From the NCBI RefSeq assembly GCF_003018235.1, contig NZ_CP027437.1: a stretch of DNA of 64,000 bases. The stretch is one strand, 5' to 3'. A model generated the notes under the pieces. That model saw only the letters and a program-made list of their open reading frames with translations. It was not told the origin of the DNA and did no database searches. Source of the DNA: Escherichia coli (GTDB lineage: Bacteria; Pseudomonadota; Gammaproteobacteria; Enterobacterales; Enterobacteriaceae). Each line of letters begins with the position of its first letter. Positions within the stretch are counted from its first letter, which is position 1. The translations under genes and the position numbers were made by a program. This document shows positions 43,249 to 43,496 of the stretch, piece after piece.

Positions 43249-43496
43249 ATTTCCCCCGTTCAGTTTTGCAGGTGAGTTTTGAACAAATGTATTTCTGCTT
43301 TTAATTTGTTCATAACCTTAGGTGGACATTGCACATATTTCCGACGAATAGATCACAATTTATGCTATTTTGATTTTCACGGTTGCGTTTGTTCATGCTC
43401 GTAGAGTCAAACTGTGGTTGCCATCACAGATATAAATGCGCAAGAACTGAACAATTGCATTAAAGATTTAAGTATGTTCAAAGTGAAGAATGAATT
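43249..43496. promoter_or_regulatory. Divergent lsrA / lsrR promoter region with a 9-bp inverted repeat (43280-43312) and a CRP-like site (43413-43428)
   Basis: TGAACAAAT-N15-ATTTGTTCA; TGTGG-N6-TCACA. LsrR and cAMP-CRP control of lsr is established knowledge. Confidence 0.55.

Follow-up and report, generated by a model that had tools for sequence, protein, structure and literature searches.

The lsr locus and its divergent control region

The window, by which we mean the whole 64-kb stretch of Escherichia coli DNA that was analysed, carries the lsr genes in their canonical divergent order, with lsrACDBFG followed by tam on the minus strand and lsrR and lsrK on the plus strand (Table 1). All eight lsr genes are full-length equivalogs, as was expected from an earlier note on this DNA, which had described the lsrACDBFG/lsrRK locus as complete. 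The gene order is the same in K-12 and in E. coli strain 118UI, and the spacer between lsrA and lsrR is identical in 118UI. Compared with K-12 MG1655, the spacer is 99.2% identical and differs by two SNPs, both of which leave the conserved half-sites described below untouched: position 43439 (C here, A in K-12) lies between CRPII and box 2, and position 43472 (G here, A in K-12) lies in the spacer of box 2, right after AAGATTTAA.

Among 5426 complete E. coli genomes, the spacer is found in 4171. It is unmatched in 1248, and one match keeps only 49 bp, adjoining an autotransporter gene. The genomes that have no match to the spacer suggest that the lsr locus has been recurrently lost or truncated among E. 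coli. In the window itself, the ECSE_1600-family autotransporter gene that follows lsrK (46651-50202) is truncated, its 1183-aa product corresponding to model positions 1-1178 of 1806, and this gene region is without about 1.8 kb that strain 118UI has.

Table 1. Features of the lsr locus in the window; candidate and putative features are worded as such
Feature	Position	Strand	Description
tam	36634-37392	minus	NCBIfam equivalog match; follows the lsrACDBFG operon
lsrACDBFG operon	37449-43248	minus	six genes listed below
lsrG	37449-37739	minus	NCBIfam equivalog match above curated cut-off
lsrF	37763-38638	minus	NCBIfam equivalog match above curated cut-off
lsrB	38665-39687	minus	NCBIfam equivalog match above curated cut-off
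lsrD	39699-40691	minus	NCBIfam equivalog match above curated cut-off
lsrC	40691-41719	minus	NCBIfam equivalog match above curated cut-off
lsrA	41713-43248	minus	NCBIfam equivalog match above curated cut-off
lsrA-lsrR spacer	43249-43496		248 bp; separates divergent lsrA (minus) and lsrR (plus)
lsrA Shine-Dalgarno (putative)	43253-43258	minus	CGGGGG; CGGAGG in other genera; 0.97 majority identity
LsrR box 1 (p-lsrA box, lsrA-proximal operator)	43280-43312		TGAACAAATGTATTTCTGCTTTTAATTTGTTCA; 33-bp TGAACA-N21-TGTTCA; the inverted repeat of the earlier note
Candidate lsrA -10	43320..43315	minus	TAAGGT (TAnnnT)
Octamer	43335..43328	minus	TGTGCAAT; site of published lsrA up-mutations, G to A and C to T (PMC5137460)
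CRP site I (CRPI)	43342-43357		CGACG-AATAGA-TCACA; weak left half
Candidate LsrR box 3	43363-43395		TGCTAT-N21-TGTTCA; right half (43390-43395) conserved, left half decayed in E. coli
CRP site II (CRPII)	43413-43428		TGTGG-TTGCCA-TCACA; 9/10 to TGTGA-N6-TCACA; the CRP-like site of the earlier note
LsrR box 2 (published p-lsrR box, lsrR-proximal operator)	43448-43480		TGAACAATTGCATTAAAGATTTAAGTATGTTCA; 33-bp TGAACA-N21-TGTTCA
lsrR transcription start (experimental)	43490	plus	K-12 NC_000913.2 position 1599272; 7-nt leader; 3 reads (Kim et al. 2012)
lsrR	43497-44450	plus	NCBIfam equivalog
lsrK	44529-46121	plus	NCBIfam equivalog

Two LsrR boxes lie in the spacer

The 9-bp inverted repeat TGAACAAAT-N15-ATTTGTTCA, which had been proposed as an LsrR operator, was confirmed in position and lies inside the spacer. 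It forms one of two copies of a 33-bp pattern, TGAACA-N21-TGTTCA, with an A/T-rich interior between the inverted half-sites. The proposal holds for this copy (box 1), which is duplicated, conserved and in agreement with the published map, but it had overlooked the second and better characterised copy (box 2). The pattern occurs twice in the 64 kb, both times in the spacer, against an expectation of 0.01, and there are still only two matches when one mismatch is permitted. Furthermore, the spacer contains five TGAACA/TGTTCA hexamers versus 0.40 expected, a count reached in none of 5000 shuffles.

For comparison, 21 lsrA-lsrR spacers from 12 genera were collected. Loci of Salmonella, Klebsiella, Sinorhizobium and Bacillus were taken from a plasmid collection. 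In all 21 spacers the boxes accompany an LsrR orthologue, the half-sites are near-invariant while their spacers vary, and both hexamers of box 1 are invariant (21/21); the N21 spacing is constant across all species compared. The arms of 9 bp are confined to Escherichia and one Superficieibacter species. Since only a core of 6-7 bp is common across genera, the 9-bp arm length was rejected as the functional unit.

The same repeat could in principle act as an RNA hairpin (an attenuator or stability element) in the lsrA leader and not as a protein operator at all, given that a transcription start upstream of 43312 would put it in the transcript and that its minus-strand RNA folds at -9.3 kcal/mol (z = -2.6). 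However, the seven pairs shared over 15 species are all invariant with zero compensatory changes, most genera have lost pairs 8-9, again uncompensated, and the 15-nt loop is a long one, rich in A and U. At box 2 and at Salmonella box 3, which are placed elsewhere relative to the transcripts, the same hexamers turn up again with 21 nt between them; box 2 RNA shows no extra stability over shuffles (z = -0.6), and an Rfam search returned no match to the repeat. The motif does match the DNA operator of the homologous repressor DeoR, as described below. We thus regard an RNA hairpin as very improbable and treat the repeat as an LsrR box.

Correspondence with the published K-12 map

According to Hauk et al. 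2016 (PMC5137460), LsrR represses both the lsr operon and itself via two boxes, and the order of sites is p-lsrR box, CRPII, CRPI, p-lsrA box and lsrA ATG. Their p-lsrR box spans -237 to -197 from the lsrA ATG, and within it the motif TAATGCA occupies -214 to -208, between AACAAT and AAGATTTAA. Both of these flanking motifs are important for LsrR binding as far as PMC5137460 relates in citing Xue 2009, which it also cites for LsrR binding of the boxes (footprint/EMSA) and for its release by phospho-AI-2. In the window, TAATGCA is found on the minus strand at 43462..43456, which is exactly -214..-208 and places the published p-lsrR box at 43445-43485. Because these coordinates map exactly, box 2 is the published p-lsrR box; box 1 is equated with the p-lsrA box because it is the sole LsrR-type box between CRPI and lsrA. 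The agreement with the published K-12 map is exact at the p-lsrR box, and the assignments of the p-lsrA box and CRPII are supported by order, elimination and conservation.

In the same study, selection for stronger expression in the lsrA direction mostly hit box 2, which is 168 bp from box 1 (Hauk 2016, PMC5137460). That up-mutations for lsrA should fall mostly in the distal box suggests that the LsrR boxes cooperate.

Two CRP sites, one matching the consensus closely and one recognized by conservation

The TGTGG-TTGCCA-TCACA sequence previously pointed out as CRP-like was confirmed in position and likewise lies inside the spacer. A CRP site in the K-12 lsrA-lsrR spacer had reportedly been described by Wang et al. 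in 2005. We identify the present site with CRPII, because it is the only match of at least 8/10 between box 2 and CRPI. In a random spacer, TGTGA-N6-TCACA is matched at 9/10 with a probability of about 0.02; the window holds four matches of at least 9/10. In an alignment of 12 species (Escherichia to Edwardsiella, mean column identity 70%), the CRPII half-sites show 0.95 and 1.00 majority identity versus 0.43 for the central 6 bp, of which ten different versions occur across species. With conserved halves and a variable spacer, the pattern at CRPII is what a protein site read through two half-sites would show.

The claim of cAMP-CRP activation is supported as far as CRPII is concerned, with its good match, its conservation and its fit to the published map, but a second site, CRPI, had been missed. 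As a 16-mer, CRPI matches at 6/10, which is chance level, and its left half matches at only 1/5 bases. With its flanks included, the right half, GATCACAATT (43351-43360), comes close to the CRP consensus GATCACATTT, and conservation is 0.90 for the right half versus 0.62 for the left. GATCAC(A/G)TTT at these positions is invariant in the 12-species alignment, and GATCAC is invariant in all spacers compared. Hauk et al. 2016 place CRPI "very close" to TGTGCAAT (PMC5137460), and the octamer here adjoins the conserved GATCAC site, in agreement with that placement. The call of CRPI thus rests on conservation and on Hauk's map (PMC5137460); by sequence it is a candidate.

A requirement for CRP has been reported at the genetic level: deletion of crp abolishes lsr promoter activity and an lsrR crp double mutant has the crp phenotype, and predicted CRP sites in the lsrA-lsrR spacer are widespread in Enterobacteriaceae (bioRxiv 10.64898/2026.06.09.730415). 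Site-level detail on lsr was absent from PMC3182856, PMC8603832, PMC6121374, PMC4928848, PMC12798060, PMC13393413 and PMC10647483, and a full-text literature search with the site sequences returned unrelated mouse papers only.

Conserved offsets define two rigid modules

Across the 12-species alignment, motif columns have a majority identity of 0.91 versus 0.65 for the background (Mann-Whitney p = 1e-14). The distances between sites are also constrained. GATCAC lies 71 bp from the start of box 1 in all spacers compared, and box 2 starts 35 bp after CRPII does, except in one Buttiauxella strain, where it starts 34 bp after it. The same boxes and offsets are present in Escherichia, Citrobacter, Kluyvera, Superficieibacter, Serratia, Mangrovibacter, Edwardsiella, Salmonella, Klebsiella and Buttiauxella, and indels are restricted to a short joint between the lsrA-side and lsrR-side groups of sites. 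With rigid offsets and indels confined to the joint, the region consists of two rigid modules, [box 1, candidate -10, CRPI] for lsrA and [CRPII, box 2] for lsrR, connected by a variable linker. CRPII, being rigidly linked to the lsrR-side box, probably serves lsrR, and CRPI probably serves lsrA. The Salmonella enterica lsr region is built alike: it has the two modules, with their offsets of 71 bp and 35 bp unchanged and boxes of the same sequence, although the right half of its CRPII reads TCACG (8/10).

The distance from box 1 to box 2 is 168 bp in E. coli, 166-167 bp in others and 163 bp in Buttiauxella. Buttiauxella sp. A111 has about 120 bp inserted precisely at the joint (L025 2270-2400). 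The insert resembles an enterobacterial repetitive intergenic element and moves the two boxes from 163 to 285 bp apart. Given distances of 163-168 bp and 285 bp, strict helical phasing of boxes 1 and 2 was rejected as a conserved need.

Conservation over this range also bears on whether the inverted repeat and the CRP-like site might both be chance matches in an A/T-rich spacer. Taken singly, neither motif is remarkable: perfect 9-bp inverted repeats with loops of 3-30 nt number 45 in the window (8.0 +/- 3.4 in first-order random sequences), a random 248-bp sequence of the spacer's composition has such a repeat in 4.4% of cases, and the expected count per window of the loose pattern TGTG-N7-TCACA is 0.47, with at least one occurrence in 37 of 100 shuffles. 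Against this stand the duplication of the box, the enrichment of the hexamers, the conservation of half-sites and offsets over 12 genera, and the agreement with the published map (PMC5137460). Duplication together with conservation excludes chance, to which we assign practically no weight, and both motifs are accordingly kept as regulatory sites.

Outlying loci gave several further observations. On an 80-kb contig of Izhakiella australiensis (L011), box 1 has the same sequence as in Citrobacter amalonaticus and box 2 the same as in a different Citrobacter (L008), and the encoded LsrR is 83% identical to that of E. coli; this lsr contig may stem from horizontal transfer or may be a contaminating contig. 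In Bacillus sp. N5-665, which has an LsrR homologue of 39% identity, AGAACA-N21-TGTTCT lies 23 nt upstream of an lsrA-like gene (L032 2008-2040), and with this match the 33-bp operator geometry reaches the Firmicutes. Upstream of the Sinorhizobium meliloti pSymB homologue, a pattern search returned no box.

Placement of the sites relative to the promoters

The lsrR transcription start is taken from Table S1 of Kim et al. 2012 (PMC3415461), as far as covered, and is represented by 3 reads only. Relative to this 3-read start, box 2 occupies -42..-10 and the centre of CRPII lies at -69.5. We infer that CRPII acts on lsrR from about -70, as a class I site. Klebsiella and Buttiauxella have a degenerate box 2 (CGAACA-N21-AGTTCA), with 3 nt between its end and the lsrR ATG (L030 2116-2148; L019 2465-2497). 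Because of this spacing, the E. coli start, which lies 10 nt past box 2, is inapplicable there; going by the sequence, lsrR of these genera must start inside or upstream of box 2 or else be leaderless.

For lsrA, no start was found in the portions covered of Table S1 of Kim 2012 and of the Cappable-seq supplement, and the covered portion of the former held no K. pneumoniae lsr rows. A scan of the region for sigma-70 promoters and terminators found nothing, a result that fits the weak promoter reported in Hauk 2016 (PMC5137460) and gives no positive support. The minus strand does carry a candidate -10, TAAGGT; in all of the aligned spacers its first two bases (T and A) and its last base (T) are unchanged, and the three bases between them differ. 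Used as a -10, it would set the lsrA start near 43308, so that CRPI would be centred at -41.5 (class II) and box 1 would cover about -4..+29.

A different geometry, to which we give a minor but real share of probability, has lsrA starting within box 1 at about 43279 from a -10 of TACATT (43291..43286), with CRPI at about -70.5 (class I) and box 1 at about -33..-1. It would economically mirror the lsrR side, where CRPII stands at -69.5 and box 2 lies over the core promoter; in TACATT, position 2 is the key A and position 6 is T, and in Klebsiella and Buttiauxella box 1 is only 13 nt from the lsrA ATG, a distance that still permits a short leader. The mirror image is imperfect, however, since the centre-to-centre distance from CRP site to box is 53.5 bp on one side versus 43.5 bp on the other, and the conservation of TACATT is inseparable from that of the LsrR box itself. 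In contrast, the TAnnnT at 43320..43315 lies outside the box, is conserved with variable middle bases and fits -41.5 exactly. The start near 43308 is hence the geometry that we prefer for lsrA.

The published up-mutations of lsrA can be read alongside this promoter. They change TGTGCAAT to TGTACAAT or TGTGTAAT (Hauk 2016, PMC5137460), and Hauk et al. explained them by proposing that CRP works with CytR, the octamer beside CRPI being a CytR half-site whose mutation relieves CytR anti-activation. Their position weight matrix search scored TGTGCAAT best, reverting the G to A change lowered expression (PMC5137460), and the octamer does adjoin CRPI. On the other hand, both independent mutations raise the hexamer TGCAAT (43333..43328) from 4/6 to 5/6 matches to TATAAT, giving TACAAT or TGTAAT; neither the octamer nor this hexamer is conserved in other genera, unlike CRPI, and the authors themselves call for experimental validation of the CytR site (PMC5137460). 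Creation or improvement of a -10 would be the simpler reading of these mutations, and a CytR half-site at this position appears improbable to us.

A possible third box between the two modules

Midway between the published boxes lies a further half-site, which is the right half of the candidate box 3. This half, which reads (T/A)GTTCA or, in Kluyvera, TGCTCA, is shared by 12 species at a constant distance of 83 bp from the right half of box 1; in the conservation table, the windows for the box 3 rows are one base off. The left half reads TGAATA in Salmonella and most genera, and in these the box is full. In Salmonella enterica the full box, TGAATA-N21-TGTTCA, is placed 83 + 83 bp from its two neighbours, whereas E. 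coli retains only the right half. Box 3 is absent in Klebsiella and Buttiauxella, and no mention of it was found in the accessible literature. It is conceivable, though we think it rather less than probable, that this is a third and previously undescribed LsrR operator, with a distance of 83 bp to box 1, or about 8 helical turns, and one of 83-85 bp to box 2.

Should box 3 prove functional, there would be three operators in phase with one another, and the LsrR tetramers bound to them could act cooperatively or could form DNA loops around both CRP sites. Such cooperation or looping, if true, would explain how mutations in the lsrR-side box derepress lsrA over a distance of 168 bp (Hauk 2016), and differences in box 3 between lineages would tune the sharpness of the AI-2 switch.

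LsrR resembles DeoR in its operator

The LsrR encoded in the window is near-identical to the E. coli LsrR structures PDB 4L5I and 4GO1, and its residues 21-315 match full-length Bacillus subtilis DeoR (PDB 8R7Y) with E = 2.9e-28. Furthermore, the LsrR half-box consensus TGAACAatT.t.ttt resembles both half-operators of DeoR, whose operator ATTGAACAAAATTTCAATTACCAATTTACATATGTTCAA (TGAACA-N24-TGTTCA) is 39 bp long with an A/T-rich interior (PMC11229326). The DeoR tetramer binds the full 39-bp operator and has no affinity for isolated half-operators, and LsrR is likewise tetrameric (PMC11229326).

The lsr boxes and the DeoR operator of dra-nupC-pdp are thus alike in several respects: a homologous repressor of the SorC/DeoR subfamily that forms a dimer-of-dimers tetramer, outer TGAACA...TGTTCA elements around an A/T-rich interior, and an operator that overlaps the promoter in the spacer beside the regulator gene. 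They differ in the inner spacing (24 nt in the DeoR operator versus 21 nt in the LsrR box), in the number of operators (one for DeoR versus two for lsr, and three in Salmonella) and in the effector (deoxyribose-5-phosphate for DeoR versus phospho-AI-2 for LsrR), and DeoR is without CRP input. By analogy with DeoR, we infer that one LsrR tetramer binds each 33-bp box, with one dimer per half.

A model for the lsr switch can be proposed from these parts. An LsrR tetramer, as a dimer of dimers, would occupy the whole 33-bp box, and the combination of a strong outer TGAACA with a weak, A/T-rich inner part would make binding depend on the tetramer. Wu et al. in 2013 reportedly found that phospho-AI-2 changes the oligomeric state of LsrR. 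When LsrK makes phospho-AI-2, the oligomeric state of LsrR would change and LsrR would be released. Box 2 would span about -42..-10 of the lsrR promoter, and box 1 would be placed over or just downstream of the lsrA start. With cAMP-CRP needed for transcription, the switch would read "no preferred sugar AND AI-2 present".

Discussion

Taken together, our results make us confident that this is the spacer from which the E. coli lsr regulon, for uptake and processing of AI-2, is divergently controlled, with two LsrR operators and the two CRP sites CRPI and CRPII. The region is already known and well described. What had been noticed from its sequence was observed correctly; the interpretation drawn from it is supported but was incomplete.

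In its logic, the region resembles classical sugar operons such as rbs and deo, in which an activator is combined with the absence of a specific repressor (AND NOT). In both, transcription strictly depends on CRP, and a phosphorylated or otherwise modified inducer, derived from the substrate that is taken up, releases the repressor. The lsr system differs from these in that its inducer is a quorum-sensing signal, and in that the spacer also serves the divergently transcribed regulator gene, which has a CRP/operator module to itself.

The refinements offered here are modest: the rigid offsets of two modules, a possible third operator, a simpler -10 reading of the published up-mutations and kinship with the DeoR operator. 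The lsr region is widely reused as a synthetic-biology promoter. For the strain at hand, confirmation of the sites indicates that the switch is intact. The region is the decision point at which E. coli brings together "no preferred sugar", through cAMP-CRP, and "AI-2 present", through the release of LsrR, before the signal is taken up.
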